64,000 bases of DNA from Candidatus Campbellbacteria bacterium GW2011_OD1_34_28 (lineage in GTDB: Bacteria > Patescibacteriota > Minisyncoccia > Phycocordibacterales > UBA12079). Numbering within the stretch: the first letter of the stretch is position 1; the number at the start of each line of letters is the position of its first letter. Below the pieces are notes generated by a model. The model searched no databases, was not told where the DNA came from, and worked only from the letters and a program-made list of their open reading frames with translations. The translations under genes were made by a program, and so were the position numbers. The DNA lies in assembly GCA_001029775.1 (NCBI GenBank), contig CP011215.1, positions 426,303-490,302 on the forward strand, read 5' to 3'. This document shows, one piece after another, positions 4,722-56,962 of the stretch.

Positions 4722-7700
4722 ATGCAAAGTGAGATATTTTTAAATGGCAAAAGGTATCTTTCAACAAAAAAAGCGACAAAAATCACAGAATTGGATGAAG
4801 AACATATTAAAGACCTATGCCGTGAAGAAAAGATAGATTTTACAAAGGTAGAAGGGGAATATTTTGTTGAATTAGAAAAACTTTTTGAATATAAAAACAA
4901 AACAAACAAGCCGATGATTTTGCCTATAAGAGCATTATCAACGGCTGTTTTGGCAATTCTCTTGATCGGAGCAGGTTACTTTTCAGGAGACATATTAAAC
5001 CAACTCAACAAAACAGGGGAGGCTGTTTTTTCTGCGGTAAAAAACACAAAAGAAATAACATACAAAGTTGGTGCAGAAAAAAGAGATTTGTTCAAAACAC
5101 AAATTCTTGATAGCAATGACAATTCTCCCATCAAAGAAATAAAAGACAGTAAAAATGTAAAAACAGTAGATACATACACACAAGACTTTTTAGATTATTT
5201 AGATGGATTAAAAAACAGAATTGTTTCCGTAACAGCTGATAGCTTACAGCTGATAGCTGATAGCACAAACGAAGATGAAGTTGAAAAAACAGTCGATAGT
5301 CGTCAGTCTATAGTCGATAGCACGGACGGCGTAAACATACTTGCAGGACAAGTAGATCACCTCACTTCGTTCGCGAAGACGGGTGTAAACAATTTAGCAT
5401 TGGTAGTCTACGAAACAGCAAGTCCTGTGGAACAGTTTGCAGTAGGTTGGTATAAGTTTGTTAATAATTTGTTTAGTAACGAAGCTGATAGCTTACAGCC
5501 AACAGCTGATAGCGTTGACGAAGCTGACAGCGGACAGCTAACAACCAACAGCGCGAACGAAGACGACTCGTCCGTCTTTGCGAGCGATAGCGAAGCGGAC
5601 AGAGATGAGATCTCGGAAAATGTTCCTTCAGTTCCCGCAACCCCAAAGACCACCACCATCGTTACAAACCCAATCAGAGAAATAATAAAAGAAACCGTTG
5701 TAGAAAGAGTAATCCAAACATCAGGCGTCACACTGGAAGATTTTCAAAAACTAAACAATGAATTAAGAAGTGAAATCTACAAATTATCTTCTGCTACTAA
5801 TTCTCAAATCACCAATACATATCAAGTAATCTCTGCCACCAACAACATCGACAATCTGGGTAGTGTCACAATCACCGACTCAAACATCAGTTCCTCAAAT
5901 GTCTCAGGAACAGAACTAAGCTTTACCAACGGAACAATTCAAAACCTAACTGTCACAGGCACAGCTACCTCTACATACGGTGGCCCTATTTCTGCAACCA
6001 GTGGAACATACTCTGGCAATCTAACTGTCACAGGCAACACCACCCTAAACACTCTTACCGTATCAGGAGACACAATCTTTGACACAGACACTCTTTACAT
6101 CGATTCAATCAACAACCGTGTAGGCATCGGATCAACAACACCTTCAGATACTCTTTCAGTAAACGGAGCAACATACCTTGCACCAATATCAGCTCCATCA
6201 ATTACCACAGACAGACTTTACAATATCTCCAATGATTTATACTGGGGTGGTAATCTTTTAGCAGGTTCAGCCGTTGGTAATTGGACATCCAACGGAACAG
6301 ATGTTTGGAGAGCAAGTGGAAATGTTGGGATTGGGACGACTTCACCTAGTTACAAATTATCCGTTGATGGTTTTGTTGATGCAAGCGGAACAACCGGAGG
6401 TTACAAAATAGATGGTAACACTATTTTGCAGGCAAGCTCAACAAATTATACTACTTTAGTTGGCCAAGGTGCTGGAAGTTCTTTAACAAGTGCTATTAGA
6501 ACTACAGCTATTGGATATGGGGCTTTGGCTAGCACAACTTCTGGTAATAATAATACCGCGGTTGGATATAACGCATTAAATCTTAATTCGACAGGAATAC
6601 TTAACACTGCCATCGGCTCTTTAGCTTTGTCCGTTAATACTACAGGTGACAGAAATACAGCCACAGGTGCCTTGGCTTTGTATTCAAACACAACAGGTTC
6701 ATATAACACAGGAACCGGCGCTTATTCTCTTAATCTAAATACCACAGGAGCAAATAATTCCGCTCACGGACGATCAGCTATGTATTCAAATACAACAGGA
6801 ACATATAACACAGCAGATGGTATGCAGGCACTTTTTAGCAATACTACGGGAAATAATAATACTGCTAGCGGTTACAGCTCTGCTTACTCAAATTCTACAG
6901 GTGGAAGCAATGTGACTATTGGATACGGTGCCTCTTATCGCAACTCAACAGGAAGTTACAACACGGCGATTGGTCAGGACGCAGGTTTTGGTGTTGCGGG
7001 AAATTCTTATTCAAACAATTCATTTTTTGGATACCGATCTGGTTATGGAATAACAGTAGGAAGTAATAATTTATTATTGGGATATCAGGCTGGTGACAAC
7101 GTTACAACAGGATCAAATAATCTTGTAATTGGTTATGATATCGACGCCCCTTCAGCCACCGCTTCAAATCAACTAAATATAGGAAACTTAATTTACGGAA
7201 CAAATATAAACGGAACAGGGACAACTTTGTCGTCAGGAAACATCGGCATCGGCACCACTTCACCTTTTGCAAAACTTTCCGTCAAAGGAGCAGGAACAAC
7301 AACAGGCATAAACTTCCAAACAACCAATTCAGCTGACACTCCGTTGGTGACTGTTTTGGATAGTGGAAATGTGGGCATTGGGACAAGTAATCCATCGACA
7401 GATTTACATGTCGGCAATAGTAACATTAACAATAGTGTAGATTCTGTAATCCTTGTTTCTAGGTTGGTAGATAATAGTGGTGTTGGTTCTGGAGTTAATG
7501 GGCACGCTTTTTCTGATAGCTCGACGATAACCAGAAGTGGCTCTATAGGATATAATTCTTTTGATGGCAGGACAATCTTTTCAGGATCAAATGATTATAA
7601 TCATTACGCTGTTTTTCAAAACGGAACAACCTATAGTTCGTCTGGAACAATGGGAATTATGTACGGATTTGTTAATGTGCCAACGGTTACAGCAGGAACA

Positions 7701-10700
7701 GTAACCAGTATGTATGGTGTTTATACCGCTGATCCAGTAGGAGCAGGCACAGTAACTAATAATTATGGTTTGTTTGTCCCTCAATTAAGCAAAGGAGCAA
7801 CAAAAAATTATGCTATATATACAGCAGGGACCACACGATCTTATTTTGGTGGAATAATAAATAATAGTGCAGGAATCTTGATAGCACCAAACGATGCTAC
7901 AACAAATCCAGCAAAATTATTTGAAATTCAAACAACATCTGGGACAGAAGCGTCTTTAAGAATAAGACAGCTTTCACAAAATTATTGGGATCTTAAATCT
8001 CCAGCAGGGTCAACTCGTTTTGACATATCAGATGTTTCTGGCACATATTTTTCTATATTGAATGGGGGAAACACCGGTTTGGGAATAACAACACCAACAG
8101 GAAAGTTAGAGATTGCTCAAGCTGGGTCAGATACTATAGCAAGTAGAAACCATTTAATATTCGGAGGATCGGAGGGTACGGATTATTTTGGCATGGGTTT
8201 AGATGCTACTGGTGATTTGATGATTGATAATTTAAATGGAACCGATACTAATGTAATGTCGTTATTGAGTTCTGGCAACGTCGGGATTGGGACGGTTAGT
8301 CCGGGGGCGAAGTTGGATGTTGCAACTGCAATAAATACTGGCAGTTTAACATTAGGAGTTGTCCCCTATACCGGTACTGACAGATATGTTGTTTTGAATA
8401 GTAATGGAATTGCTCTAAAGAACAGTATTACATATGGATGGGGGTCTGGATCAACAGATGCTGGAGGAACAAAGGATACTCAATTTTCACGTCTTTCAGC
8501 TGGAAAGATAAGTGTTGATACTGGCACAGTTGGCAATTCTTTAGGTACTCTTATCGCTGGCAACGTCGGCATCGGAACGACGAGTCCGGCTGCGGCTTTG
8601 GAAGTTCAGGGTAATGTTATCTTTAACGACCGCCTGACAATGAATGGTGATTCGGTTGGTTTATCTGCTAATAACTCAAACTACAATACTATTAAAAGTT
8701 TGTTCAGACCTACTTCAAATGGATTAAATTTAACAGGGGCTTTGGTAGATGCAAATTTTGATAACAACTCAGCAAACCTTACAAATGCCTATGGGTTAAG
8801 GATAACAAACGCCATTTCAGGAACTTATACAACAACAAACGCATATGGGCTTTATGTTGAGCAGCCGACAGGGGCAACGAATAATTATGGGGCATATATA
8901 AACGGCAATGTCGGCATTGGTACCACAACACCTTTCAGAAAGTTGAGTGTAGAAGGTAGTGTGTGGATCAGTGGTGATTTAACCGCTAACTCAATTACTG
9001 CCACAAGTTCAATTTCTGCTCCTTACTTTACAGCGACAGACACCACAGCAACTTCTACTTTTGCTGGTGGTTTAACCGTGGGAACAAATAAATTGGTGGT
9101 GGATAGGAGTACGGGAAATGTCGGCATCGGGACGACAGCATCGGACAGGGCGTTACATATTTCTACTAACTCTACAAACTATCAATTAAGACTTGAACGA
9201 ACTGGGACAACAGCTGGTGCTTCTACCTTATATGCAAACTCATCTTTTGCGCTTGGAATTACGGCAGGTAGCGGAACTGGTACAGGAGTATTTACTCTTG
9301 GACAAACGGGCGGTCTTTCTTTGGGAACATATTATGGAACAAACCCCGGAGCGGGAAGCCTAATACTTCCCGGCAACGTCGGGATTGGAACAACCACACC
9401 ATTTAGAAAGTTGAGTGTAGAAGGTGGTGCGTGGATATCTGGTGATTTAACCGTATCAAATATAACAGCCACATCATCTGTCTATTTATCAAACACCACA
9501 TATGCCGACCAGTCAGGTATTATCTACAAAGGAGCCAATTCTTTTATCCACAATTTCAATTATGGGAACAATGGAACAGTGACGACATTGGGACAAAATA
9601 CTTTTGTCGGAGAATTGGCCGGAAACTTTACAATGGGAAGCACGGCAACAGAGACTTACCATGCAAGTAGAAATACAGCAATAGGTTATCAATCCTTACT
9701 CGCCAACACAACAGGATATTATAACACTGCTAATGGTTATCAAACTTTGCGATTAAACACCACAGGAGGCTACAATACCGCTAATGGTTTGCAATCTTTA
9801 TATTCCAACACCACGGGCAATTACAATACTACTAATGGTGCAAATTCTCTCTATCTTAACACCACAGGCTCTTCTAATGTTGCCGACGGCCATTCTGCTG
9901 GTACTTACATCACCGACGGCGTAACAGCCAACACCACGGGAGACTACAATATCTTTATCGGACGAGACACTAAAGCCCTTGCCGACAACGACCAAAATGA
10001 AATCGTTATCGGCTACAACGCCACAGGGGTAGGAAGCAACTCGGTTGTTTTGGGGAATGATAGTATCACAAAAACGATTTTGAAGGGGAATGTCGGCATC
10101 GGCACCACCTCACCTTTTGCAAAACTTTCAGTAACAGGAGCTGGAACAGGCACTGGCTTGGCTTTTCAAGTTGCAAACTCTGCCAATTCTCCAAAATTTA
10201 CTGTTTTGGATAGTGGAAATGTGGGCATTGGGACGATGGGTCCGGAAGGATTATTGCATATCCATTCTACTAGCGCAGGGGATGTTGTTGCACACGCTTC
10301 TTATAATGATTTTGTGATTGAGGGAGGATCAACTGTAGGTATGAATATTCTTTCCGCGGACGTGGGCCTTTCAGGTCTTGGATTTGGCACGCCGTCAGAT
10401 AATTTAGGTAGCTATCTTCAGTGGGATTTTACGAATAATTTAATGTCCGTTGGAACCGCAAGAACAGGCGGAAATCTTAGATTAGTTACTGGAAATAATG
10501 TGGAGCAGATACGAATACAATCAAACGGCAACGTCGGCATCGGAACAACCACACCTTCCGCAAATTTGGATATTTACTCTAACGTAGACTCTAATTCTCG
10601 ACTGAACATTGATTTGGGGGCTGCTTCTTCGAACATTGGTATTAATCTTATATCGTCATCTATCTCCAGCGGTTCATATTGGATAAAAACAACAGGAAAC

Positions 10701-13700
10701 GATAATGAAGATAGTTTTGTTGTTAGAGGAGATGGGGCTGTCGGAATCGGAACAACAACTCCTTCTGCAAAACTCGATATCTATCAAGGTAATTTGAATT
10801 TGGACAACACCACTTTCGCCAACCAATTTGGAGTGATTTCCAAGGGCGGAACAAGGTTTATCCATAATTTCAACTACGGAAACAACGGAACGGTGACGAC
10901 AGTAGGATACAATACTTTCATTGGAGAAAACGCGGGAAACTTGACGATGGGAAGTACGGCGACTTCGGCTAGTCATGCAAGCTACAATACAGGAGTGGGC
11001 TATCAGTCCTTGCAGGCAAACACCACAGGCTATTTCAACACCGCTATTGGTAATCAATCTTTATTATTAAATACCACAGGTTATCACAACACCGCTATTG
11101 GTAATCAATCTTTGCGTGGTAATACCACAGGTAGTTCTAATACCGCTAATGGTTATCAGTCTTTATATTCCAATACAACAGGAGGATTTAATGCTGCCAT
11201 TGGTTATCAATCTTTACGTTCCAACACAACAGGTGGCTATAATATCGCTTTTGGTTATAACGCTGGTCGCTATATTACAGACGGCGTAACAGAAAACACC
11301 ACAGGAGACTACAATATCTTTATCGGACAAGATACCAAAGCCCTTGCCGACGACGACCAAAACGAAATCGTCATCGGCTACAATGCCACAGGGGTAGGAA
11401 GCAACTCGGTTGTTTTGGGTGCCGATACAATCACAAAAACAATTTTGAAGGGGAATGTTGGCATCGGCACCACCTCACCTTTTGCAAAATTATCAGTAAC
11501 AGGAACCGGAACAGGAACTGGCTTGGCTTTTCAAGTTGCCGATTCTGCCAACTCACCAAAATTCACTGTTTTGGATAATGGAAATGTCGGCATTGGGACG
11601 ACGGCGCCAAGCCAGATTTTACATACTTTCAGAAATGATTCAAATACTACAAATAGTATTGAAATTGAGCAAGATGGCTCGGGAGATTCTTCATTAAGAT
11701 TTTTATTAACAGGAGTTACTGGATGGACAATGGGTGTAGATAATTCTGATTCAGATAAATTTAAGATAGGAAATGCACAGTCATTTTCTACAAGTTTTTT
11801 AAACATAGATGGCGCTGGCAACGTCGGTATAGGAACGGCAAATCCAGGGGCGGAACTTGAGATACAAGCAGACGCAAATACAGGCGGAGCTCCTCAATAT
11901 TCACAATTTTGGATTTCTGGAAAGACAGTTAATACAAAACGATTTTATATTGGTATGGATACGAGCACAAATAAAGGTATTCTTTCCGCAGAAACTGGTG
12001 CTGGGGTTTATGCACCTATTGTTATAAATCCATATGGTGGCAATGTTGGCATCGGCACCACAACACCAGGGGCGAAGTTAGATATTAATGGAAATATGAG
12101 AACCTCCATTGGTTCAGGTGGATTTTTGACATTACATGAGACTGATGCTACAAGACAAAATCAGTTGAGTCTGGGAGCTGACGCAAGCGGTGCGTATTTA
12201 GCTTCAACTTATGCGACTGGAGGAGTTGCAGATATTCGTTTTAGTTTAGCAGGTACAGAAAGGGTGCGCATTCAACAGGGTGGTAACGTCGGCATCGGCA
12301 CCACCTCACCTTTTGCAAAATTATCCGTCAAAGGAGCAGGAACAACCACAGGTGTAAACTTCCAAACAACCAATTCGGCTGACACTCCGTTGGTGACTGT
12401 TTTGGATAGTGGGAAGGTGGGTATTGGGACGACGAATCCTGGTACATTATTACAATTAAATATTGATGGTATAGCTAATACACCAAAGGAAGTATTAAGA
12501 GTGTTTAATGGGCTTGCTTATGGTGTTGGTAATGGTTATGGTGAGGCCCAAATAGGCATCGGACACGCTGTATCGGGTGGATATGTCGGTGGTGGAGCTA
12601 CTTCTGAAACTTCAAGTACTAATGGATATCTATCTTTAGGAAATAGGGTATCTAATGTAATGACAGAAGTAGTTAGAATTACTGATGGCAACGTCGGCAT
12701 CGGGACGACGAGTCCGGGAGCAAAGTTAGTTGTAGTGGGAAATGGTACCGCAAGCGTGGCTATAGGGGGTGGAGCATATACAGACTATTCATCTATATCC
12801 TTGAATGGGAGCCTTGCTTCTGGTCAATACAATCTTTTAAGTGGTTATGCTGACAAGACGCTCTATATTAATCGTCCAGCCGGTGCAGATATTTTATTTA
12901 GGGAAAATAATGGTACTGCACAGATGGTCATAAAACAGACAACCGGCAATATCGGCATCGGCACCACATCACCTTTTGCAAAACTATCCATCAAAGGAGC
13001 AGGAACAACCACAGGTGTAAACTTCCAAACAACCAATTCGGCTGATACTCCGCTGGTGACTGTTTTGGATAGTGGGAATGTCGGTATTGGGACGGTGAGT
13101 CCAGGGGCAATGTTGACTATTGTAGGCACTCCTGCTGGAGGTTCCACGAATGTTGGGTTAAATATATATGACAACACGGGGAATGGTGTCGGAATATGGA
13201 CATCAAACGCAGTTGGAAAAATTGGAACACCGAATGCTGTTGATGTTGCATTTATGGCAAACAATAGTGAGAAAATGAGGATATTACAATCGAACGGCAA
13301 CGTCGGCATCGGGACGACGAGTCCAGGAAGTTTGTTGCATTTATATCAAAATACAGTAGGAGTTGGGACTGGTAATGGATTAATGATTGAACAGGATGGA
13401 GCAGGCGACGCTTTAATGCAGTTTTTATTAACGGGGACAGCTAGATGGCAAATGGGCGTTGATAATAGCGATTCTAGAACATTCAAAATTGGAGTTGGTA
13501 GCGATTGGGCAACAAATATTGGCTTGGCAATTACAACTACAGGCAACGTCGGCATCGGCTCAACCGCTCCAAACTACAAACTAACCGTAAACGGAACAGT
13601 AGCTTTCCAAAGTCTTGCTAACAACGGCACTGGCTATTATGTCTGTGCCAACGCTGGAACAGGAGAACTAGCCACATCAACAACAGCCTGCGGAGCATCA

Positions 13701-14624
13701 TCAGAAAGATTTAAAACAAATATAAACGATCTAACATACGGTCTAGACACAGTCCTTCAACTACGCCCTGTATCTTTCAATTGGAAATCAGACTTTATCA
13801 ATTCTTCTTCAACTCAAATCGGATTCATCGCAGAAGAAGTAAACTCTCTTATACCAGAAGTAATCGGACACGATGACAAAGGTACTATCATGAACCTTGA
13901 TTATCCAAAGTTGACTTCGGTTTTGGTAAATGCAGTTAAGGAACTTAATCTAAAAATAGAAAGTATTGCAAGTACAACAAGCCAGTTGATAGCCGACAGC
14001 TCACAACCAACATCTGTTATTGATTCTGTTCTTTCTCATTTAGAAAGTTTGGGTGCTAAGTTTGTTGATGGAATCGCTTATTTAAAAACAGTTTTCGTTG
14101 AAAATCTAACTATTGGTAGTGCGGACAAGCCGACTGGTATGACTTTGTACGACAAAGCAACAGGGGAGCCTTATTGTTTGGAAATTGTTAATGGAGCGAT
14201 GGTAAATACTTCTGGAATTTGTGATACAGCTAATAGCCAGCAGCCAACAGCTGACAGCACGAACTACACCGCACCAGTTATAACAATCACAGGCAACAAC
14301 CCAGCCGTAGTAGAAATAAACAGCAACTATATTGATCTAGGCGCTACAGCAGTAGATAACCAAGGAAACTCTCTAATCGTAGATATAATAGACGCAGATA
14401 CAGTAGACACAACAACAGCCGGAGAATACACAGTTACTTACACAGCATTTGATGGAACACTAACTTCAACAAGTACGAGAACAGTACTTGTTGAAGATCC
14501 GACCCCGTTAGAGACCACGACTGTCTCTGACAGTCTGCCTCTAACGGGGCAAGTAGCTGACAGTCAACAGACAGCGACAACAACAGAGCCGACAACAACG
14601 GAGACGATAGTCGATAGTTTATAG
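4722..14624 (+). CDS. Giant (3300 aa) membrane-anchored repetitive fibre protein: N-terminal cytoplasmic segment + single TM, ~24 GNVGIGTTSPxxKLSV modules, Hep_Hag-like NTAxGxxSL repeats, S74-type intramolecular chaperone domain (SERFKTNI...), C-terminal Ig-like domain
   Basis: Single uninterrupted ORF; TM helix ALSTAVLAILLIGAGYF near residue 75; periodic motif counted in translation; SERFK autoproteolysis motif at nt ~13690-13960; extended -10 TGGTATAAT at ~4699-4707 upstream. Confidence 0.85.
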   Translation: MQSEIFLNGKRYLSTKKATKITELDEEHIKDLCREEKIDFTKVEGEYFVELEKLFEYKNKTNKPMILPIRALSTAVLAILLIGAGYFSGDILNQLNKTGEAVFSAVKNTKEITYKVGAEKRDLFKTQILDSNDNSPIKEIKDSKNVKTVDTYTQDFLDYLDGLKNRIVSVTADSLQLIADSTNEDEVEKTVDSRQSIVDSTDGVNILAGQVDHLTSFAKTGVNNLALVVYETASPVEQFAVGWYKFVNNLFSNEADSLQPTADSVDEADSGQLTTNSANEDDSSVFASDSEADRDEISENVPSVPATPKTTTIVTNPIREIIKETVVERVIQTSGVTLEDFQKLNNELRSEIYKLSSATNSQITNTYQVISATNNIDNLGSVTITDSNISSSNVSGTELSFTNGTIQNLTVTGTATSTYGGPISATSGTYSGNLTVTGNTTLNTLTVSGDTIFDTDTLYIDSINNRVGIGSTTPSDTLSVNGATYLAPISAPSITTDRLYNISNDLYWGGNLLAGSAVGNWTSNGTDVWRASGNVGIGTTSPSYKLSVDGFVDASGTTGGYKIDGNTILQASSTNYTTLVGQGAGSSLTSAIRTTAIGYGALASTTSGNNNTAVGYNALNLNSTGILNTAIGSLALSVNTTGDRNTATGALALYSNTTGSYNTGTGAYSLNLNTTGANNSAHGRSAMYSNTTGTYNTADGMQALFSNTTGNNNTASGYSSAYSNSTGGSNVTIGYGASYRNSTGSYNTAIGQDAGFGVAGNSYSNNSFFGYRSGYGITVGSNNLLLGYQAGDNVTTGSNNLVIGYDIDAPSATASNQLNIGNLIYGTNINGTGTTLSSGNIGIGTTSPFAKLSVKGAGTTTGINFQTTNSADTPLVTVLDSGNVGIGTSNPSTDLHVGNSNINNSVDSVILVSRLVDNSGVGSGVNGHAFSDSSTITRSGSIGYNSFDGRTIFSGSNDYNHYAVFQNGTTYSSSGTMGIMYGFVNVPTVTAGTVTSMYGVYTADPVGAGTVTNNYGLFVPQLSKGATKNYAIYTAGTTRSYFGGIINNSAGILIAPNDATTNPAKLFEIQTTSGTEASLRIRQLSQNYWDLKSPAGSTRFDISDVSGTYFSILNGGNTGLGITTPTGKLEIAQAGSDTIASRNHLIFGGSEGTDYFGMGLDATGDLMIDNLNGTDTNVMSLLSSGNVGIGTVSPGAKLDVATAINTGSLTLGVVPYTGTDRYVVLNSNGIALKNSITYGWGSGSTDAGGTKDTQFSRLSAGKISVDTGTVGNSLGTLIAGNVGIGTTSPAAALEVQGNVIFNDRLTMNGDSVGLSANNSNYNTIKSLFRPTSNGLNLTGALVDANFDNNSANLTNAYGLRITNAISGTYTTTNAYGLYVEQPTGATNNYGAYINGNVGIGTTTPFRKLSVEGSVWISGDLTANSITATSSISAPYFTATDTTATSTFAGGLTVGTNKLVVDRSTGNVGIGTTASDRALHISTNSTNYQLRLERTGTTAGASTLYANSSFALGITAGSGTGTGVFTLGQTGGLSLGTYYGTNPGAGSLILPGNVGIGTTTPFRKLSVEGGAWISGDLTVSNITATSSVYLSNTTYADQSGIIYKGANSFIHNFNYGNNGTVTTLGQNTFVGELAGNFTMGSTATETYHASRNTAIGYQSLLANTTGYYNTANGYQTLRLNTTGGYNTANGLQSLYSNTTGNYNTTNGANSLYLNTTGSSNVADGHSAGTYITDGVTANTTGDYNIFIGRDTKALADNDQNEIVIGYNATGVGSNSVVLGNDSITKTILKGNVGIGTTSPFAKLSVTGAGTGTGLAFQVANSANSPKFTVLDSGNVGIGTMGPEGLLHIHSTSAGDVVAHASYNDFVIEGGSTVGMNILSADVGLSGLGFGTPSDNLGSYLQWDFTNNLMSVGTARTGGNLRLVTGNNVEQIRIQSNGNVGIGTTTPSANLDIYSNVDSNSRLNIDLGAASSNIGINLISSSISSGSYWIKTTGNDNEDSFVVRGDGAVGIGTTTPSAKLDIYQGNLNLDNTTFANQFGVISKGGTRFIHNFNYGNNGTVTTVGYNTFIGENAGNLTMGSTATSASHASYNTGVGYQSLQANTTGYFNTAIGNQSLLLNTTGYHNTAIGNQSLRGNTTGSSNTANGYQSLYSNTTGGFNAAIGYQSLRSNTTGGYNIAFGYNAGRYITDGVTENTTGDYNIFIGQDTKALADDDQNEIVIGYNATGVGSNSVVLGADTITKTILKGNVGIGTTSPFAKLSVTGTGTGTGLAFQVADSANSPKFTVLDNGNVGIGTTAPSQILHTFRNDSNTTNSIEIEQDGSGDSSLRFLLTGVTGWTMGVDNSDSDKFKIGNAQSFSTSFLNIDGAGNVGIGTANPGAELEIQADANTGGAPQYSQFWISGKTVNTKRFYIGMDTSTNKGILSAETGAGVYAPIVINPYGGNVGIGTTTPGAKLDINGNMRTSIGSGGFLTLHETDATRQNQLSLGADASGAYLASTYATGGVADIRFSLAGTERVRIQQGGNVGIGTTSPFAKLSVKGAGTTTGVNFQTTNSADTPLVTVLDSGKVGIGTTNPGTLLQLNIDGIANTPKEVLRVFNGLAYGVGNGYGEAQIGIGHAVSGGYVGGGATSETSSTNGYLSLGNRVSNVMTEVVRITDGNVGIGTTSPGAKLVVVGNGTASVAIGGGAYTDYSSISLNGSLASGQYNLLSGYADKTLYINRPAGADILFRENNGTAQMVIKQTTGNIGIGTTSPFAKLSIKGAGTTTGVNFQTTNSADTPLVTVLDSGNVGIGTVSPGAMLTIVGTPAGGSTNVGLNIYDNTGNGVGIWTSNAVGKIGTPNAVDVAFMANNSEKMRILQSNGNVGIGTTSPGSLLHLYQNTVGVGTGNGLMIEQDGAGDALMQFLLTGTARWQMGVDNSDSRTFKIGVGSDWATNIGLAITTTGNVGIGSTAPNYKLTVNGTVAFQSLANNGTGYYVCANAGTGELATSTTACGASSERFKTNINDLTYGLDTVLQLRPVSFNWKSDFINSSSTQIGFIAEEVNSLIPEVIGHDDKGTIMNLDYPKLTSVLVNAVKELNLKIESIASTTSQLIADSSQPTSVIDSVLSHLESLGAKFVDGIAYLKTVFVENLTIGSADKPTGMTLYDKATGEPYCLEIVNGAMVNTSGICDTANSQQPTADSTNYTAPVITITGNNPAVVEINSNYIDLGATAVDNQGNSLIVDIIDADTVDTTTAGEYTVTYTAFDGTLTSTSTRTVLVEDPTPLETTTVSDSLPLTGQVADSQQTATTTEPTTTETIVDSL
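7241..7384 (+). repeat. ~145 bp intragenic DNA repeat (copy 1 of 3; copies at 12291..12434 and 12951..13094) encoding GIGTTSPFAKLSVKGAGTTTG(I/V)NFQTTNSADTPLVTVLDSG
   Basis: Near-identical nucleotide stretches read directly in sequence. Confidence 0.8.
9500..10215 (+). repeat. ~700 bp intragenic duplication (second copy ~10820..11595) encoding FIHNFNYGNNGTVTT...Hep_Hag repeats...GNVGIGTTSPFAKLSVTG
   Basis: Long collinear nucleotide similarity between the two segments inside the giant gene. Confidence 0.75.
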
Positions 14625-14765
14625 TCAATAGTAACGAAGACAAATGAACGACGTGGATTCCTGCCTGCCGTGTCGTTGCTTTTCTTTCAGAAAAGAGGCA
14701 GGTTTGGATATAATTTGTATTACCTGTCTGTCGGCAGGCAGGTTCGGATTATCTTTATAAAGAAA

Positions 14766-15173: not shown

Positions 15174-16571
15174 TTATCCGTTTTTAATGATAGTTATAAA
15201 TTTCTTTATAATATTATTATCTCTTGTTTTTTCGTTGATGCTTCCTGCGGGATTAACATTTACGATTATTGCCATATCTGTTCCTGCTTTTGCTCTATCA
15301 AAGCCGAGCATATATTCTATTCTTTCTCCGGGTCTGATCATTCCTTGAGTGTTTGAGTGATAAATATATATAGGATCGGTAGGGAGAACGATATTAAATG
15401 TCCATCCGTCAGCTGTCTTTGTTCCAATGTTTGAAATAATAAATCTAAACGCAACTTTGCTAGATGTATTTGGAGTAGATGAAGCCACAAATTTGTTTGT
15501 GTTCGGATCAATTATTCCTACTTCAATTATTTCTGCTGTTAAGTCTGCCTGACCATATGGGTTTGAAACACCAATTGTTGAACCACCGCTAATAGGAATT
15601 ATTTGAGTTGTTGTTTGTCCTGGATTAAGAATTGTTGTTGTGTTTCCTGTGTTTGTATTACTGTTTGTATTATTTGTGTTTGTTGTGTTGCCTGAGATAG
15701 TATCACTGTCAGAATTGTCTACTATTCCTGATATTGGATAGCTTGTTACAAAGTCAGCCTCTACTATATGTCTGTCTTCTTTTGCTCCCAATGTATTACA
15801 TGTTGAGATTGTAAGAGTTCTTTTTCCTGTATTAAATTTAACCACAGCGTCGCTATCTCTTTCTGTTCTTACAGAAGTTACCTTGTAAAGGTGTTCCTTG
15901 TTTTCAGAACGAACTTTAATAGTATCTCCGACTTCAAGTTTTTCAAGATTGTTCAATGCTTTATAGGCTTGATTTCTCACTACTTGATAGCTGGTGCTAT
16001 GTCCAAAAAGATAAATGTTGTCTTCTTGCCCCAAAAGTCCTGATTTTGGATATCTAACAACTCCGTATTTCAAAGCCTCATCTAGTGCTGACAAATCGGA
16101 TGAAGTAGGATTAAGCACAGCTGAATCAACATTTATTTTATCGATAACAATTCTAATAGGATTAGCTACTTCTTCTGTAACATCTACAATTCCTCCTTCA
16201 GGAATTCTTTTGCTATAGAAAAGTTCTGCTACAGCCGATAGGTTTTCTGAAATAAAGTTTGCACTGCTACTAATTACTGAACCAAAAAATGTTCCAACCT
16301 TTGATAGAGAAGGGAAGTAAGTAGGAAATTTTTCTGCTCCTTCTCCTGCAACTTCAGTTGTGTTTTTTACATTGTTTACAATCCTTGGTGCAGCAACAAC
16401 TAAAATAATTAACACGATCAATACTTTCAATGCAGTCTTAAAACCTTTTTTAGGCACTTTGAAAGAGACATCGTAGTTGTCATCTCGTCTTCTCAACTCA
16501 CCTTCGTAAGGCAAATTGTCAGGTGCTCCTGAATCGTTATCGTTTATTCTTTTGTTTAGTGGATTCATCAT
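15174..16571 (-). CDS. Sortase-family transpeptidase (class uncertain) with N-terminal TM anchor and C-terminal CARDB-like beta domain
   Basis: Catalytic triad context LFGHSTS (His), LTISTCNTLG (TLxTC Cys), downstream Arg; N-terminal hydrophobic helix ALKVLIVLIILVVAAP. Confidence 0.8.
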   Translation of the reverse strand: MMNPLNKRINDNDSGAPDNLPYEGELRRRDDNYDVSFKVPKKGFKTALKVLIVLIILVVAAPRIVNNVKNTTEVAGEGAEKFPTYFPSLSKVGTFFGSVISSSANFISENLSAVAELFYSKRIPEGGIVDVTEEVANPIRIVIDKINVDSAVLNPTSSDLSALDEALKYGVVRYPKSGLLGQEDNIYLFGHSTSYQVVRNQAYKALNNLEKLEVGDTIKVRSENKEHLYKVTSVRTERDSDAVVKFNTGKRTLTISTCNTLGAKEDRHIVEADFVTSYPISGIVDNSDSDTISGNTTNTNNTNSNTNTGNTTTILNPGQTTTQIIPISGGSTIGVSNPYGQADLTAEIIEVGIIDPNTNKFVASSTPNTSSKVAFRFIISNIGTKTADGWTFNIVLPTDPIYIYHSNTQGMIRPGERIEYMLGFDRAKAGTDMAIIVNVNPAGSINEKTRDNNIIKKFITIIKNG

Positions 16572-16732: not shown

Positions 16733-19024
16733 ATGACAAAGAATATAACAAAAAGCTTAATAATATTTCTGGCAATTTTTTCCGCGTTTTCTTTTGGTTT
16801 GATTCCAGTAGATATTCAAGCTGCTACTACTCAAATAAATTTTAATGATGAGATTATGTTTGCTCCGAACTGTTTTTGCGGAGCTGATGTAACAGCATAC
16901 AATCTTTACCCCTGTGAAGATCGTAATTGGTGTAACGGTGATACCTCAATAAAGACAGCCAATGTTTCTAATGGAAAATACAAAGTAAAAGTAAATATAG
17001 CTAAATTAACTGATGGACAAAGATTTGAATCGGTGATTTTTACATTTAATGGAGTAAATTATACTATTCCCGATCTTGGAGGAAATGCAGACTCGACTGG
17101 TACGGGGGTATATGAAGTTGGAACATTTAATTTGTCAGGACCAGTTAGTTTTAAAGGAACTCACAAATATGCCAATACTTTTACAGGTCTTTGGTACTCA
17201 GATCCTTATTCAAAAGTAGGTTCTGGTCACGCAATGGAAAGTGTTTCTATTGCCTCTGTTGTTCTTGAAGAAATTGTTACCCCACCTACTTGTACAATGA
17301 GTGCGGTTCCTTCAACAATAACTGCTGGAAATACATCAAATTTGAGATGGACTTCTACAAACGCAACTAGCGCTGTTATCAATCAAGGAATTGGAAATGT
17401 AGCCGTTAATGGAAATAGAAATGTTTCTCCATTCCAAACAACGACTTACACAGGAACATTTACGGGCCCTGGTGGAACAGTAAATTGTCAAACAACCGTG
17501 ACTGTTACAATACCCCAAATGCCTACTTGTACAATGACAGTTAATCCTGCAAATATTACAACTGGACAAAGTGCAACTTTGAGTTGGACTTCTGTAAACG
17601 CAACTAGCGCTGTTATCAATCAAGGAATTGGAAATGTAGCCGTTAATGGAAGCAGATCTGTTTCACCAACTCAAACAACAACTTATACGGGAACATTTAC
17701 TGGTGCTGGTGGAGTAGTAACTTGTCAAAAAACTTTGACTGTTAACAATGTTCCACCACCTCAATTGCCGACTTGTGCAATGAGTGCTGTTCCTCAAACA
17801 ATCTCTGTTGGAGACACATCAAATTTGAGATGGACATCTACAGGCGCAACCAGTGCTGTTATAAACCAAGGAATTGGCACAGTAGCAGTTGATGGAAATA
17901 GAAATGTTTCACCTACTCAAACCACAACATATACAGGAACCTTTACAGGTTCTGGAGGAAGCGTAGTTTGCCAGACAACAATTATTGTTACATCTACACA
18001 CCCTGCGCCAACTTGTACAATGACAGTTACACCAGACAGTATTGTTAACGGAGGAAATGCTACTCTAGCTTGGAATTCTACAAATGCTACATCTGCTTCT
18101 ATAAATCAAGGTATCGGAACTGTGGCTGTTGATGGAAGTCGTGTTGTTTCTCCAAATCAGACCACAACATATACAGGAACATTTACAGGTTCTGGAGGTG
18201 TTGTTACTTGTAGTGCTATGTTGACTGTTTCTGGAACAGGAGGTCCTTCTATAAATATAACAAAAAATGACAATGACAATGGTGATGATACTCAGGCCGT
18301 TGTGTCTGGGGGGACAGCAACCTTTACAGTCGTTGTGACAAATAATGGAACAAGAGATCTTATTGACGTTGTTGTAACAGATGCTTTGGCACCAAATTGT
18401 AACAGAACAGAAAGTCAAACAGCAGGTCTTTATCCGGGGTTAGTATTTGATCCAGGAGAAAGTTTTACTTATACATGTACTGACACAGATATTACATCAG
18501 CTTATACAAATACAATTAGAGTTGATGCTGATGAAATTGGAACATTTTCTATTGTTAATGACACAGATACCAGCAATGTTACCATAACTGGTTCAGGAAA
18601 TACTCCTACATGTTCTATGAGTTTTACACCAAGTAGCATAAATGTTGGAGACAGATCAACTCTTGCTTGGAATTCAACAAATGTTACTACGGCTGTTATT
18701 GATAACGGTGTAGGTAACGTCAATCCAAATGGTTCAACAGATATATTTAGAACATCGTCTGCAACATATACAGGAACATTTACAGGCCCAGGTGGAGTAG
18801 TGACTTGTCAGGCAAACATAACTGTTGGTGGTGGGGGAGGTGGAGGAACAAATACTCCGCGTATCACGCTATCTTCTGGTTCTGGAGTAACTGAACCCGG
18901 ATTCATTTATTTGAGCCAGATTCCTTATACAGGTATTCCTCAGTTCTTGATGACAATGATGGGATTTGTATTTAGATTCGCGTTCTTTGGAGGATTACTG
19001 TTTGCCTTATACAAAATTAAATAA
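16733..19024 (+). CDS. Secreted surface protein with six tandem Ig-like repeats (PTCTM...TYTGTFTG.GG.V.CQ) and C-terminal cell-wall sorting signal (IPYTG + hydrophobic segment + KIK)
   Basis: Signal peptide MTKNITKSLIIFLAIFSAFSF; repeats evident in translation; C-terminus LSQIPYTGIPQFLMTMMGFVFRFAFFGGLLFALYKIK has LPXTG-like architecture; TTGACA-N17-TAGTAT promoter at ~16699-16727. Confidence 0.8.
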   Translation: MTKNITKSLIIFLAIFSAFSFGLIPVDIQAATTQINFNDEIMFAPNCFCGADVTAYNLYPCEDRNWCNGDTSIKTANVSNGKYKVKVNIAKLTDGQRFESVIFTFNGVNYTIPDLGGNADSTGTGVYEVGTFNLSGPVSFKGTHKYANTFTGLWYSDPYSKVGSGHAMESVSIASVVLEEIVTPPTCTMSAVPSTITAGNTSNLRWTSTNATSAVINQGIGNVAVNGNRNVSPFQTTTYTGTFTGPGGTVNCQTTVTVTIPQMPTCTMTVNPANITTGQSATLSWTSVNATSAVINQGIGNVAVNGSRSVSPTQTTTYTGTFTGAGGVVTCQKTLTVNNVPPPQLPTCAMSAVPQTISVGDTSNLRWTSTGATSAVINQGIGTVAVDGNRNVSPTQTTTYTGTFTGSGGSVVCQTTIIVTSTHPAPTCTMTVTPDSIVNGGNATLAWNSTNATSASINQGIGTVAVDGSRVVSPNQTTTYTGTFTGSGGVVTCSAMLTVSGTGGPSINITKNDNDNGDDTQAVVSGGTATFTVVVTNNGTRDLIDVVVTDALAPNCNRTESQTAGLYPGLVFDPGESFTYTCTDTDITSAYTNTIRVDADEIGTFSIVNDTDTSNVTITGSGNTPTCSMSFTPSSINVGDRSTLAWNSTNVTTAVIDNGVGNVNPNGSTDIFRTSSATYTGTFTGPGGVVTCQANITVGGGGGGGTNTPRITLSSGSGVTEPGFIYLSQIPYTGIPQFLMTMMGFVFRFAFFGGLLFALYKIK
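17285..18240 (+). repeat. Four-five tandem ~240 bp coding repeats (Ig-like domains) inside surface protein gene; a further copy at ~18598..18840
   Basis: Repeated PTCTM(S/T)xxP...RWTSTNATSAVINQGIG...TTTYTGTFTG units. Confidence 0.75.
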
Positions 19025-19026
19025 AA

Positions 19027-19185
19027 TTTAAACAACCTTAAATTTGACGAATTTCTTCGTCAGCCTCAAGAAAAAGTCCTTCGTCGTATGTGACATACGC
19101 CTCAGGGCTTTTTCTTTTGCTTCCTCGAACCTGCCTGCCGGCAGGCAGGCTTCATTCAAATTTTAGGTTGTTTTGAAATTTTCGA
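19027..19185. mobile_element. MITE-like palindromic intergenic element, copy A (contains central CCTGCCTGCCGGCAGGCAGG palindrome)
   Basis: Terminal inverted repeats AAACAACCTTAAATTTGA / TCAAATTTTAGGTTGTTT; shares internal ATTTCTTCGTC...CTCGAAC blocks with copies at 25996, 33299, 35907, 56820. Confidence 0.65.
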
Positions 19186-19225: not shown

Positions 19226-19258
19226 AGAAAAGCCCCAACCGAAGTTGGGGCTTTTTCG
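19226..19258. terminator. Bidirectional intrinsic terminator GCCCCAAC CGAA GTTGGGGC + T5
   Basis: 8-bp GC-rich stem, T-run; 3' of minus-strand gene 19281..19625. Confidence 0.75.
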
Positions 19259-19280
19259 GATTGACCGCGGAGTCGTGCGG

Positions 19281-19625
19281 TTATCCGAGGACCGTGTAGG
19301 CGTCGATGTCGACGTTATTGGTCGAGAGAAAGTCCATGTAGTTCTGCGACAGAACGCCGGCTGCGAGGACGATGCTATCGGCCGAGCTCAGGCCGGCCGC
19401 ACACTTGTCCGGGTTGGCCGAGTTGAACGGGACCTGCTTGATCTTTCCATTGACGTTGATCAGGGCGATACCGGGCGATTTGACGTCGAGCTTGTCGCTG
19501 TGGAACACGATGGCTTTGGCCTTCGGGTTGTCCATGATACTGACCGTCTCCAGGGTTGCCGTGATTCCGAGCGCCACGATTGCCGTCATCACATTCAGGG
19601 GTTTGATCGTTTTCTTGCTGTCCAT
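19281..19625 (-). CDS. Small secreted hypothetical protein (114 aa, signal peptide) in ~58% GC cassette with SD GGAGG and gggaTTGACAat promoter
   Basis: ATG at 19625 preceded by ACGGAGGAAACGCC; hydrophobic N-terminus KPLNVMTAIVALGITATL; promoter TTGACA-N16-TAATAT at ~19690-19725 (minus); strong GC shift relative to flanks. Confidence 0.65.
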   Translation of the reverse strand: MDSKKTIKPLNVMTAIVALGITATLETVSIMDNPKAKAIVFHSDKLDVKSPGIALINVNGKIKQVPFNSANPDKCAAGLSSADSIVLAAGVLSQNYMDFLSTNNVDIDAYTVLG

Positions 19626-19735
19626 TGGCGTTTCCTCCGTAAAAAAAAGGGCTGTTTGCACTGAGAATCAAGATGACTCAAAGCACGTTGACTGACAAAC
19701 ATATTAACAGACTAAAAAATATTGTCAATCCCAAC

Positions 19736-25263: not shown

Positions 25264-25995
25264 ATGATTAACAAAGAAAAAAAATCAATAATATCTGTTA
25301 AGAATCTTGAAAAGACTTATAATGATGAGGGTGGAGAGACCCACGCTCTGAGAGGAGTAACTTTTGATATTGCTTCTGGTGAATTCGTTGCAATCATGGG
25401 GCCATCGGGATCGGGGAAATCAACTCTTTTGCATATGTTGGGTCTCTTGGATAAATTCACAGGAGGGGAATATTATTTTGATCAAGACAAGGTAGAAACT
25501 TTTTCGGAAGAAGAAATCGCTCATTTGAGGAATAAAAAAATGGGTTTTATTTTTCAAGCGTTTAATCTTTTGCCTAAGGCAACTGTTTTGGACAATGTAA
25601 AATTGCCGTTAGCTTATTCTGATGTTCCTGAAAGTGAATGGAATAATATGGCAGTAAAAGCAATAGAAGCCGTTGGTATGTCACACAGAATTCATCATTT
25701 TGCGAGCCAGCTTTCTGTGGGAGAAAAGCAGAGAACATCAATTGCTAGGGCTCTTGTTAATGAACCCGATATTATTTTTGCCGATGAACCAACAGGAAAT
25801 TTGGATTCTCGTTCAGGAGGTGTTGTTATGGATATAATAAAAAGATTGAATTACAAAGGCAAAACTGTCGTTTTGATTACTCACGAAACATACACTGCCG
25901 AATATGCGGAAAGAATAATAATGATTAAAGATGGGAAAATGGAATTTGATAAACCAGTTGAGCACATGAGACAGGCAGGAGAGTTTAAAAAATAA
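25264..25995 (+). CDS. ABC transporter ATP-binding protein (MacB/LolD/FtsE-like)
   Basis: Walker A GPSGSGKST, signature LSVGEKQR, Walker B IIFADEPT. Confidence 0.92.
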   Translation: MINKEKKSIISVKNLEKTYNDEGGETHALRGVTFDIASGEFVAIMGPSGSGKSTLLHMLGLLDKFTGGEYYFDQDKVETFSEEEIAHLRNKKMGFIFQAFNLLPKATVLDNVKLPLAYSDVPESEWNNMAVKAIEAVGMSHRIHHFASQLSVGEKQRTSIARALVNEPDIIFADEPTGNLDSRSGGVVMDIIKRLNYKGKTVVLITHETYTAEYAERIIMIKDGKMEFDKPVEHMRQAGEFKK

Positions 25996-26130
25996 TTCCA
26001 AAATTAGCACATAACTTCGTCGGTTTTGGAAAAATTTTTTTCACCGTATGTTAAATACGGCCCTGCCTGCCGGCCGGCAGGTCAAAAATTTTTTCCTCAC
26101 CTCCTCGTTCTGTATCTAATTTTGAAATCA
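25996..26130. mobile_element. MITE-like palindromic intergenic element, copy B (central CCTGCCTGCCGGCCGGCAGG palindrome)
   Basis: TIR TTCCAAAATTAG / CTAATTTTGAAA; internal ATAACTTCGTCG...CTCGTTCTGTAT blocks shared with other copies; starts 1 nt after ABC ATPase stop. Confidence 0.7.
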
Positions 26131-26152
26131 TTTAGACAAAATTTAAAAATTT

Positions 26153-27459: not shown

Positions 27460-27580
27460 GTTCTGTTGTCGGGGATTGGCGTCCCTCGGAATAAAAGGGT
27501 TACCTTGTTTGGAAAGCATCCTGCCAATTTTTGGTTCAAGGATGCAACGCCCAACCCGCGGTTTTCCGCGGGTTTTTTAT
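27460..27580 (+). ncRNA. Candidate structured small RNA, copy 1 (own extended -10 TGTTATACT, conserved 5' GGGGAUUGGCGUCCCUCG, variable hairpin, conserved 3' domain, intrinsic terminator CCCGCGG-UUUU-CCGCGGG-U6)
   Basis: Promoter at 27445..27453; 5' and 3' ends pair (UUGGCGU / ACGCCCAA); terminator 27555..27578; no plausible CDS. Confidence 0.6.
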
Positions 27581-27628: not shown

Positions 27629-27760
27629 GTGACTTGCTTGCATGGAGAAAAGGGGATTGGCGTCCCTCGAAATGTTTGGGTCCGCACATTTAGAAAGTAT
27701 CCTGCCTTAATTGGTTCAAGGATGCAACGCCCAACCCGCGGTTTTCCGCGGGTTTTTTTA
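27629..27760 (+). ncRNA. Candidate structured small RNA, copy 2 (tandem paralogue; variable hairpin AAAUGU...ACAUUU replaces AAGG-GUUA-CCUU of copy 1)
   Basis: Promoter TGTTATACC at 27614..27622; identical 5' 18 nt and 3' ~50 nt plus identical terminator at 27735..27759; compensatory base changes in the variable hairpin. Confidence 0.6.
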
Positions 27761-29571: not shown

Positions 29572-29660
29572 AAAGGGGTAAGGTATAAGGTGTAAGTATA
29601 AAAAATTTCCACAAAATTCTACTTTCTACTTTCTACTTTCTCCTTTATACTATTATATGT

Positions 29661-32917: not shown

Positions 32918-33298
32918 ATGAGAATTTTAGGAATAACAATACCAGACGAAAAGAGATTAGAGATAGGGTTAACAGCCCTTTTTGGTGTTGGTAGATCTCG
33001 TGCTCAAAAAGTTTTGGATAAAGCAAAGATTGATCACGGAAAAAAAGCAAAAGATCTTTCAGTAGATGAAGAAAACAAAATCAGAGAGATCCTAGAATCA
33101 TACAAAATAGAAGGTGATTTAAAAAGAGAAGTTTCAGGAAATGTTAAAAGACTGAAAGATATCATGTCATACAGAGGTTCAAGACACGCAAAGAAATTAC
33201 CTGTTCACGGACAATCTACAAAAACAAATTCAAGAACAGTTAGAGGAAATGTTAGAAAGACTATGGGATCGGGTAGAACAAAAGTAGACAAAAAATAA
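32918..33298 (+). CDS. rpsM: 30S ribosomal protein S13
   Basis: MRILGITIPDEKRLEIGLTALFGVGRSRA signature. Confidence 0.95.
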   Translation: MRILGITIPDEKRLEIGLTALFGVGRSRAQKVLDKAKIDHGKKAKDLSVDEENKIREILESYKIEGDLKREVSGNVKRLKDIMSYRGSRHAKKLPVHGQSTKTNSRTVRGNVRKTMGSGRTKVDKK

Positions 33299-33375
33299 TA
33301 ATTCCAAAATTGACGACCTTTGCTTTCATTTTTAAAAAAAAATGAAAGCGAATCTCATTCAATTTTGAAATTATT
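33299..33375. mobile_element. MITE-like element, short copy C (ATTCCAAAATTGACG...TTCAATTTTGAAAT)
   Basis: ~75 bp near-perfect hairpin with the same termini as the longer copies, immediately after rpsM stop. Confidence 0.6.
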
Positions 33376-33402
33376 TGAATTTTAATAAAATTAAAATCAA
33401 TT

Positions 33403-35906: not shown

Positions 35907-36035
35907 AAAATTCCAAAATTGACGCATAACATCGTCGTCTTCACAAAAATTTTCTTCGCCTTATGTTGAATAAGGCTCAAAAAATTTTTGTTTGACTCCT
36001 TGTTCTGCATTCAATTTTGAAATTTTTTGTTGTTG
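35907..36035. mobile_element. MITE-like element, copy D
   Basis: TIR TTCCAAAATTGACGCA / TGCATTCAATTTTGAAA; internal ATAACATCGTCG...CTCCTTGTTCTG; starts at first base after rplQ stop. Confidence 0.7.
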
Positions 36036-36122
36036 CAATTAGTTAAAAAAGAGTTATAATTCAGGAGTCAAAAAAAGTTTAAAAATACTAAAAACTAATG
36101 ACTAAAAACTAAAAACTTATTT

Positions 36123-36887: not shown

Positions 36888-36894
36888 AAACAAA

Positions 36895-56819: not shown

Positions 56820-56948
56820 TTATAATTCCAAAATTAAAGAATTTCTTCGTCGACTAAGAAAAAAACTTCCTCATCGTAATCGTATTTAAAATACGACTCG
56901 GAAGTTTTTTTCTTGTCTTCTCGAACTTCATTTAATTTTGGAATTATT
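56820..56948. mobile_element. MITE-like element, copy E (near-perfect 130 bp hairpin, centre CGTATTTAAAATACG)
   Basis: TIR ATTCCAAAATTAAAGAATTTCTTCGTCG / CTCGAACTTCATTTAATTTTGGAAT; arms complementary over ~45 bp. Confidence 0.7.
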
Positions 56949-56962
56949 TTTTTGTTCGTGAG

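Follow-up and report, generated by a model that had tools for sequence, protein, structure and literature searches.

What are the long hairpins that stand, mostly directly behind a stop codon, between the genes of Candidatus Campbellbacteria bacterium GW2011_OD1_34_28, and how did they come to be there? The host belongs to the Patescibacteria (candidate phyla radiation, CPR) and has a tiny genome, and the question is raised by a 64-kb stretch of its contig CP011215.1 (positions 426,303 to 490,302, hereafter the window), in which an original prediction listed five palindromic elements. Here we find that this five-copy repeat family is real and constitutes a new family of dispersed palindromic repeats, of a well-known class. 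With moderate confidence, we interpret its members as non-autonomous mobile (selfish) DNA palindromes of about 120 nt in Candidatus Campbellbacteria, whose behaviour is closest to that of the REP, ERIC and Correia elements. Genomes of the Patescibacteria are usually described as minimal and streamlined, and we found no published description of dispersed palindromic repeats or of MITEs (miniature transposable elements with inverted repeats) in this lineage.

Five window copies and their relatives

A covariance model (R1) was built from nine copies and run over the window and related loci. Within the 64 kb it returned exactly five matches and no sixth one, all on the plus strand, at 19032-19174 (copy A), 25992-26134 (copy B), 33298-33377 (copy C), 35907-36029 (copy D) and 56822-56950 (copy E), and direct inspection likewise confirmed the five predicted copies at these places. 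Copies A, B, D and E score 77-131 bits (E-values of 1e-16 to 1e-29) and the shortened copy C 42.8 bits (E-value 2e-7), and all five align across their full length. The terminal 11-mer by itself is not enriched in the window (15 matches vs 10.6 expected); since this is the level of chance and the full-length scores lie far above it, the signal sits in the whole element. Two degenerate remnants had been suspected at 29600-29650 and 37252-37345. Neither gave an R1 match at E < 10, and the former is of another sequence type, built from heptamer repeats.

Outside the window, R1 identified about 20 further copies in related Candidatus Campbellbacteria contigs, with scores up to 141 bits and E-values down to 1e-32. 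An exact-pattern scan of genome and metagenome collections (AATTCCAAAATT-N11-TCGTCG) gave mostly chance matches, and true copies were recovered only in L003 and L034 (Candidatus Campbellbacteria RIFOXYC2_FULL_35_25), L015 and L027 (Patescibacteria UBA3466), L046 and L073 (strains 96% identical to the window), and L054, L059/L069 and L063 (three other metagenome contigs). We also searched with R1 the syntenic ribosomal-operon loci of species with RpoA identities of 85%, 82%, 77%, 74% and 73%. Species 2 possesses copies after rplQ and rpsI, species 4 has them after rpsK and rpsI, and in L091 four consecutive copies follow rpmJ, rpsM, rpsK and rpsD, thereby separating rpmJ-rpsM-rpsK-rpsD-rpoA; no copies were found by R1 in L087, L090 and L167-L172. 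One related organism has spacers of just 1-15 nt in its ribosomal operon, which looks like the compact state before invasion. Viral contigs were considered as carriers and rejected, as their 36 matches to the element pattern are at about chance level.

Chance similarity among AT-rich intergenic sequences, with which the unenriched terminus taken alone would agree, is refuted by these searches. Model scores of 77-141 bits are reached in several genomes, R1 gave zero matches in 719 kb of unrelated (viral) contigs, and the covariation reported below is far above that of shuffled and slid controls; hence we regard the probability of this explanation as negligible.

Hairpin structure and strand asymmetry

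Each copy forms one long, imperfect, AT-rich hairpin of about 120 nt (copy length 80-143 nt), and the folding predicted for the window copies exceeds that of shuffled sequence by far in stability (z = -5.3 to -9.7). A terminal A/T-rich stem of 13-17 bp, opening with (A)TAA, is followed by a second stem, and the inner part is composed of an A-run/T-run stem and then a small apical hairpin (YGTAT-N5-ATACR). Type I copies share a conserved asymmetric, pyrimidine-rich internal loop (5' CTTCGTCG / 3' CTCCTYG), and type II copies (window copy C, the S11 copy of L088 and all four copies of L091) are fully paired at this position. On the minus strand, the type I loop was also considered as a K-turn or tandem G-A motif; such a motif is not a family-wide requirement, as type II copies have no loop. 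The ends are inverted in every copy and covary in sequence (TTCCAAAATT/AATTTTGAAA, TCGCAAATTT/AAATTTACGA and GTCTGAATTT/AAATTCAAAC). The common termini described at the outset thus hold as inverted ends but not as one fixed sequence: the 3' terminus AATTTTGAAAT is present in B, C and D, GGAAT occurs in E only, and the termini of copy A covary with the family consensus (AACCTTAAATTTG...CAAATTTTAGGTT). The internal blocks, likewise described as common, are all missing from copy C. Judged from the sequences, covarying ends of this kind would match a stem better than a fixed transposase-binding site.

The pairing was evaluated in a MAFFT alignment of 20 distinct copies, with column shuffles and slid partners as controls. 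Double (compensatory) changes were observed in 35 of the 39 predicted pairs, and paired cells made up 90.9%, as compared with 68.7% in the shuffles and at most 49% for slid partners. There were 175 cells with double changes vs 8 with single-side changes (G-U type), and no more than about 1% of sense-strand cells are G-U pairs. The rarity of single-side changes fits a strict Watson-Crick upkeep of a DNA palindrome and is untypical for an RNA stem drifting via wobble pairs. Moreover, the two strands are unequal. As RNA, the minus strand has the more stable fold in all 20 copies (by a mean of 12.6 kcal/mol), and with DNA parameters in 18 of the 20. A-C mismatches of the plus strand (G-U on the minus strand) compare with its G-U pairs as about 29 to 9, and the plus strand of the element is rich in C and T, opposite to the surrounding genes. 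Copies inside operons are necessarily transcribed as plus-strand RNA, in conflict with the better fold of the minus strand. This advantage of the minus strand speaks against selection on a sense RNA and favours an intermediate made of bottom-strand DNA, an antisense RNA being the less likely option. An antisense terminator was rejected, because the U-tract after the minus-strand hairpin is inconsistent among copies.

These data bear on the alternative that the element is a host-selected, cis-acting RNA of 3' untranslated and intercistronic regions, which would protect the upstream cistron from 3'-5' exonucleases or provide an RNase III site that uncouples cistrons. An RNase R gene stands beside copy E, and an RNase J gene is also located in the window. 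The strong covariation and the conserved loop of the type I copies would agree with such a role. The weaker sense fold and the scarcity of sense-strand G-U pairs are opposed to it, and no Rfam family accounts for the element: Rfam 15 gave 0 matches at the gathering score in the entire window, and at E up to 10 only generic miRNA-type hairpin noise over copies D and E. A putative mRNA-stabilising role of the individual elements, as proposed originally, is plausible.

Placement behind stop codons, termination and turnover

The placement exactly after stop codons is borne out in the window and extends to other genomes. Seventeen of 21 copies start between -5 and +7 nt from the stop codon of the co-oriented upstream gene. 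In the window the distances are +7 (A), -4 (B), -1 (C), 0 (D) and +83 (E), and the upstream genes are correctly named in the original prediction as those of an Ig-like surface protein, an ABC ATPase, S13, L17 and, for E, an SMC-like protein. The upstream gap (about 0) is shorter than the downstream gap (10-206 nt) in 11 of 11 co-directional spacers, which leaves the 5' region of the downstream gene intact, and the element's own TAA or TAG is the upstream stop codon in window copy B, in the S7 copy of L015, in L063, in the S9 copies of L046 and L083 and in the S4 copy of L091. The genes preceding the copies encode S13, L17, S9, S7, S12, S11, S4, L36, PGK, RecJ, RNase H, PilC and the ABC ATPase, many of them being ribosomal. 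Only one copy has the opposite orientation, a weak one without ends (L088 10245-10330). REP families are likewise positioned near the upstream stop codon, which they sometimes donate, with a variable distance to the downstream open reading frame (ORF; PMC3733652), so that this placement marks a class of repeats and is not unique to the Campbellbacteria family. A conserved 5' target motif was rejected: the upstream flanks are merely A/T-rich, and the TAA is part of the terminal stem and covaries in D and L088.

Copy A (19030..19176, plus strand; 77.3 bits; fold -59.7 kcal/mol, z = -6.9) begins 5-7 nt past the stop codon that ends the gene for the Ig-like surface protein, and its core resembles a terminator. 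Its subtype, with a GC-rich palindrome in the identical place, recurs in L083. Copy B (25992..26134, plus strand; 108.3 bits) lies between the ABC ATPase and MacB permease genes and overlaps the ATPase stop codon, which is the TAA of the element; the orthologous spacer of species 2 (L086) is without the copy. Copy C (33298..33377, plus strand; 42.8 bits), between rpsM and rpsK, is a shortened type II form without the apical part and without the pyrimidine-rich internal loop, similar to the S11 copy of L088. Copy D (35907..36029, plus strand; 131.3 bits) is flush with the rplQ stop codon and located 5' of the rplM promoter, which the promoter scan placed at 36033-36060 (TTGCAA-16-TATAAT); in species 3 (L087) the gap between rplQ and rplM is just 20 nt. 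Copy E (56822..56950, plus strand; 117.2 bits; fold -43 kcal/mol, z = -9.0) occupies the spacer between the convergent smc-like and rnr genes. It lies 83 nt past the stop codon of smc, with a canonical terminator (56772-56803) shortly before it, and the stop codon of rnr is 12 nt away.

Could the family consist of intrinsic (Rho-independent) terminators that were copied around the genome? A core of A-tract, GC-stem and T-tract is found in A, E, the post-rpsI copies and L063 only, all at operon ends (e.g. AAAAAACGCTC...GAGCGTTTTTT and AAAAAGTCC...GGGCTTTTT), and in 0 of 9 operon-internal copies (Fisher estimate p ~0.03); moreover, in one allele a copy replaces a perfect terminator hairpin after rpsI. 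However, a consensus terminator scan, which readily detected canonical terminators (30 sites in 19 kb vs 11.5 expected), flagged none of the copies A-D. Copies B (ABC ATPase-permease) and C and the four consecutive copies of L091 (rpmJ-rpsM-rpsK-rpsD-rpoA) are operon-internal and require read-through, and these copies, together with the likewise operon-internal S12 copy of L015 and S11 copy of L088, are without the GC-stem/U-tract core. In addition, a canonical terminator stands directly beside A, E, the L003a copy, the S7 copy of L015 and the S9 copy of L088. We therefore consider this explanation very unlikely for the family. The proposed doubling as transcription terminators is unsupported in general and could apply at most to some copies at operon ends; by their sequence, only variants with the A-tract/GC-stem/T-tract core would be likely to terminate transcription. 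The distribution of this core is as expected if selection filters the variants that a given site tolerates, and the reading of post-stop hairpins as terminators may mislead in these genomes. The promoter scan (62 sites vs 62.9 expected from shuffles) was uninformative on promoters at the element ends.

Turnover of the copies is evident after rpsI, where an element is carried by L046/L073 (strains with 96% identity to the window) as well as by species 2 and species 4, and the window and L085 carry a perfect 31-bp terminator hairpin (36873-36937) in its place. Species 2 has both alleles, and a comparison of the element allele between the two species gives about 98% identity. Past this copy there are three haplotypes, which diverge exactly from the 3' end of the element. 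The species 2 copy after rplQ is closer to window copy B than to window copy D, copy E is absent from strains with a 100% identical RNase R and a near-identical smc, and copy sites are not orthologous between species. Resident copies also decay: copy C is another 33 nt shorter in 96%-identical sister strains, owing to an internal deletion, the loop of the S11 copy in L088 is "corrected" to perfect pairing, and truncated copies are found in L083 and L085. Intergenic DNA turns over far faster than genes. The spacer around copy E (56739-56962) is wholly different at the corresponding place in L167 (8014-8116), which has another terminator and heptamer arms and no copy E. As for the 31-bp inverted repeat at 36873-36937, its 5' arm takes in the rpsI stop codon and the four codons before it, and this allele is also present in species 2 (L085) and species 4 (L088). 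The perfect extension of the repeat into the rpsI coding sequence suggests a "correction" of palindromes via template switching.

The cis-acting RNA explanation can be weighed again with these observations. Orientation fixed to the upstream gene, the position flush with the stop codon, the separation of successive cistrons by the four L091 copies and a between-species conservation above that of the surrounding coding DNA are in its favour. Against it, copies are gained and lost between strains of 96-100% identity, resident copies decay, related genomes have spacers of 1-20 nt at the same sites, and the upstream genes share no functional class. Taken together, we deem a host-selected RNA element an unlikely account of the family.

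A clean pair of filled and empty sites is available at rpsI of L088, where the element sits between the stop codon and the A-tract of a terminator found undisrupted in both the window and L085. With the element, the site reads GATAAAA, then ATTATTTCAAAATT...GGAATAATTTAC (ending TTTAC) and then ACAAAAAAACACCC; without it, the site reads GATAAAAACAAAAAAACACCC. A target duplication amounts to at most 1 nt, so that the check for target-site duplications was negative at this single pair. Copies arranged in tandem in L059 bear out the 3' end (...ATTATTTAC) of the element.

For the mobile palindromes that we favour, spread would depend on the recognition of a folded single strand by some enzyme, which would account for the upkeep of Watson-Crick pairing in the face of sequence change. 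The relevant strand is probably the bottom one, as it folds better in RNA terms in every copy. Position and orientation may be due in part to the mechanism of insertion and in part to selection, neutral intergenic space being almost absent from this genome. After its insertion, the element would be transcribed passively within the upstream mRNA, where its hairpin may serve as a 3'-end barrier or a processing site.

Several observations weigh against this interpretation. No transposase or recombinase is encoded among the genes of the window according to Pfam, and no autonomous element with identical ends was found among the window genes or the pattern matches in the collections. The result on duplication is derived from one clean pair, which is a cross-species comparison, and the B, C, D and E sites in relatives show replacement of whole spacers instead of simple insertion. 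All well-scored copies are oriented as the neighbouring genes, so that the polarities of transcription and replication are inseparable here. The elements are 72-82% identical at the nucleotide level, which exceeds the coding DNA of hosts with an RpoA identity of just 73%, and this high conservation, together with the conserved type I loop, would also fit selection at the host level. Furthermore, template switching on quasi-palindromes could keep the arms complementary without any structural recognition.

Known repeat classes, a nested palindrome and neighbouring features

The likeness to MITEs that had been proposed holds in part. The copies are short (80-143 nt), non-coding and dispersed (5 per 64 kb, between gene calls), with inverted-repeat ends and presence or absence varying among strains, whereas the target-site duplication of a classical MITE is not seen at the single clean pair. 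A parent insertion sequence or transposase with matching ends was not detected among the window genes (Pfam), and the true pattern matches in the collections are short copies.

ERIC (IRU) sequences are 127-bp enterobacterial repeats that form imperfect palindromes of about 125 nt in transcribed intergenic regions; they are conserved across genera beyond neutral DNA and occur in size variants created by internal insertions and deletions. Compared by description, our element shares their size, palindromy, conservation and indel size variants. It differs in that ERIC is reported with a TA duplication and in both orientations, and the Campbellbacteria element is without duplication and nearly uniform in orientation.

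The attC sites of integrons (e.g. the 120-nt VCR of Vibrio) are imperfect palindromes of 60-140 nt that stand at the stop codon of the preceding ORF in fixed orientation; their structure is conserved above their sequence, and it is as a folded bottom strand that they function. The family could accordingly be regarded as folded-strand recombination sites, recognised by a tyrosine recombinase or an HUH enzyme and marking points of DNA exchange. In agreement with this, the element starts at stop codons in fixed orientation, its structure is more conserved than its sequence and its bottom strand folds better in every copy. The L091 locus resembles an array of genes plus sites, one of the three haplotypes that diverge at the 3' end of the rpsI copy carries a 3.9-kb restriction-modification island, and type I copies of the B and D kind contain an internal ...YTAAC / GTT... 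pair beside an unpaired spacer. However, the attC consensus R'' (RYYYAAC)/R' (GTTRRRY) is not located at the element ends, and the AAC/GTT pair is internal, confined to some type I copies and absent from copies of type II and of the A/E kind. The element is flanked by essential ribosomal and housekeeping genes in universal order, not by cassettes in an array, no integron integrase is present in the window, and the element alone was cleanly inserted in L088. Recombination sites thus appear to be a highly improbable explanation.

The mobile palindromes are closer to the REP, BIME and REPIN sequences of Proteobacteria, which are mobilised by RAYT (Y1 HUH) tyrosine transposases and consist of a GC-rich stem-loop of 20-40 nt with a GTAG/CGTC tag, two inverted ones making a REPIN (see PMC3733652 for the REP arrangement). 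Both groups are dispersed extragenic palindromes between co-directional or convergent genes, near the upstream stop codon and sometimes supplying it, both lack target duplications, and for both a recognition of the folded single strand is proposed; moreover, the REPIN hairpin of about 100 nt is close to our element in size. Unlike a REP doublet, the Campbellbacteria element is a single AT-rich hairpin of about 120 nt with arms that are not self-palindromic. Its unpaired 5' loop (CTTCGTCG) does contain CGTC, though not arranged as in REP sequences (PMC3733652), no RAYT gene is seen in the window, and the host is a member of the Patescibacteria. The Correia elements of Neisseria (CREE, NEMIS) are hairpins of 100-155 bp with inverted-repeat ends, which are co-transcribed with adjacent genes, can be bound or cleaved by RNase III and can affect expression (PMC2649163). 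Our family resembles them as a hairpin repeat with inverted-repeat ends that varies in presence between strains, and differs from their conserved 26-bp terminal repeat and TA duplication by its covarying ends and lack of duplication. Hence the family works like REP, ERIC and Correia elements, yet meets the formal definition of none of them.

The family reveals a fast turnover of the scarce intergenic nucleotides of CPR bacteria, even between the cistrons of rpmJ-rpsM-rpsK-rpsD-rpoA, with spacers that differ between strains whose genes are 96-100% identical. The elements are useful as strain markers, and assembly breaks are likely to be caused by them. A possible entry point to a new mobilisation mechanism is offered by their insertion without duplication, together with the better folding of the bottom strand. 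A more far-reaching proposal would be a new structure-specific hairpin transposon of CPR bacteria, whose folded bottom strand would be recognised by an enzyme, which would insert without duplication precisely where a stop codon adjoins a terminator or a 5' untranslated region, and which would have colonised even the essential ribosomal operons of genomes below 1 Mb; CCTGCCTGCCGGCAGGCAGG would then be a second, independently mobile "nano-element" that CPR bacteria share with many unrelated viral genomes. We regard this as doubtful.

The sequence CCTGCCTGCCGGCAGGCAGG is a GC-rich palindrome of 20 nt located at 19130..19149, in the 3' arm of copy A, and a variant of it (CCTGCCTGCCGGCCGGCAGG, 26062..26081) lies beside the apical hairpin of copy B; the GC palindrome is thus not at the centre of A and B as had been described. 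In copy E the flanks GAA and CTT are the same as around the palindrome of copy A, without the insert. Copy D of L046/L073 carries an extra GC palindrome (CCTGCCTGYCGGCAGGCAGG) as an exact 20-nt insertion with no duplication, and window copy D is without it. The palindrome of copy B occupies the same relative position as this insert, and that of copy A is placed differently, in an arrangement common to the truncated L083 copy. The GC palindrome is a unit separate from the main element. CCTGCCTGYCGGCAGGCAGG is also present outside the elements in intergenic CPR DNA (window 14734-14753, L073 11614 and 11715, L063 3580 and 3621), and exact 20-mer matches are found in 39 unrelated viral-contig stretches (L092-L130) of 38-70% GC, with less than one expected. 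The main element is absent from these 39 stretches. The flanks of the palindrome often consist of short heptamer-type repeats. In one of the viral-contig stretches a predicted tRNA-Met (L118 2239-2330) has the palindrome as its variable arm. The check on ORF interruption by the viral palindromes was uninformative, since at 60-70% GC all six frames of a contig stay open over long distances, and we found no paper containing the palindrome sequence. Either it is a mini-palindrome that moves independently, or it is of technical origin; the agreement of independent assemblies and the existence of sequence variants argue for a natural origin.

The analysis placed the window in contig LBQN01000002.1 of assembly GCA_000990865.1, and the RpoA encoded here shows 100% identity to proteins labelled Candidatus Campbellbacteria. 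The window contains a partial rpoC (rpoC', the 3' part), dnaG, rpoD, the genes of a 3300-aa surface protein, a sortase and the Ig-like surface protein, those of ThrRS, MiaA, an MFP/ABC/MacB transporter and AlaRS, infA-rpsM-rpsK-rpsD-rpoA-rplQ, rplM-rpsI, grpE-dnaK-dnaJ, the genes of RNase J, topA, the SMC-like protein and RNase R, and mraZ/mraW. The 3300-aa ORF (4722-14624) harbours 21 dispersed copies of a 54-nt unit (GGNAAYGTYGGNATYGG...), and the 763-aa Ig-like protein (16733-19024) has five repeats of about 223 nt, mostly spaced by 237-246 nt; both products are probably surface proteins, and the sortase gene (15174-16571, minus strand) adjoins both of their genes. At 19245-19700 a local GC-rich segment within the AT-rich region has overlapping ORFs on both strands; the public annotation gives a 98-aa gene on the minus strand, for which neither Pfam nor Rfam returned a match. 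The 3.9-kb island of L073 (390-4298, in place of window 36887-36984) starts at the 3' end of the element copy. By our own reading of its sequence, it encodes a 515-aa protein whose C-terminal part seems to resemble a cytosine-C5 methyltransferase, a putative small restriction enzyme (164 aa) and two unknown proteins.

Other spacers are built differently. In many of them two to four heptamer repeats precede a hairpin or bidirectional terminator in the centre, the inverted heptamers follow, and the whole gives a very long hairpin. The heptamers (TAAGGTA, AGCTGAT, ACAGTTT, AGATTTA and AAAGTTN) vary by spacer and strain, and such spacers are located at 29575-29650, 36938-36972 and 50442-50476 in the window, at L083 8703-8790, at L088 640-730 and 1120-1220, at L091 7575-7700, 10990-11085 and 11870-11960, and at L167 8014-8116. 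The spacer between MacB and AlaRS contains two identical terminator-like hairpins (AACCCGCGGTTTTCCGCGGGTT followed by a T-run) at 27553-27574 and 27733-27754, 180 nt apart, and at this position species 2 carries a sigma-70 gene (L083 1953-2906).

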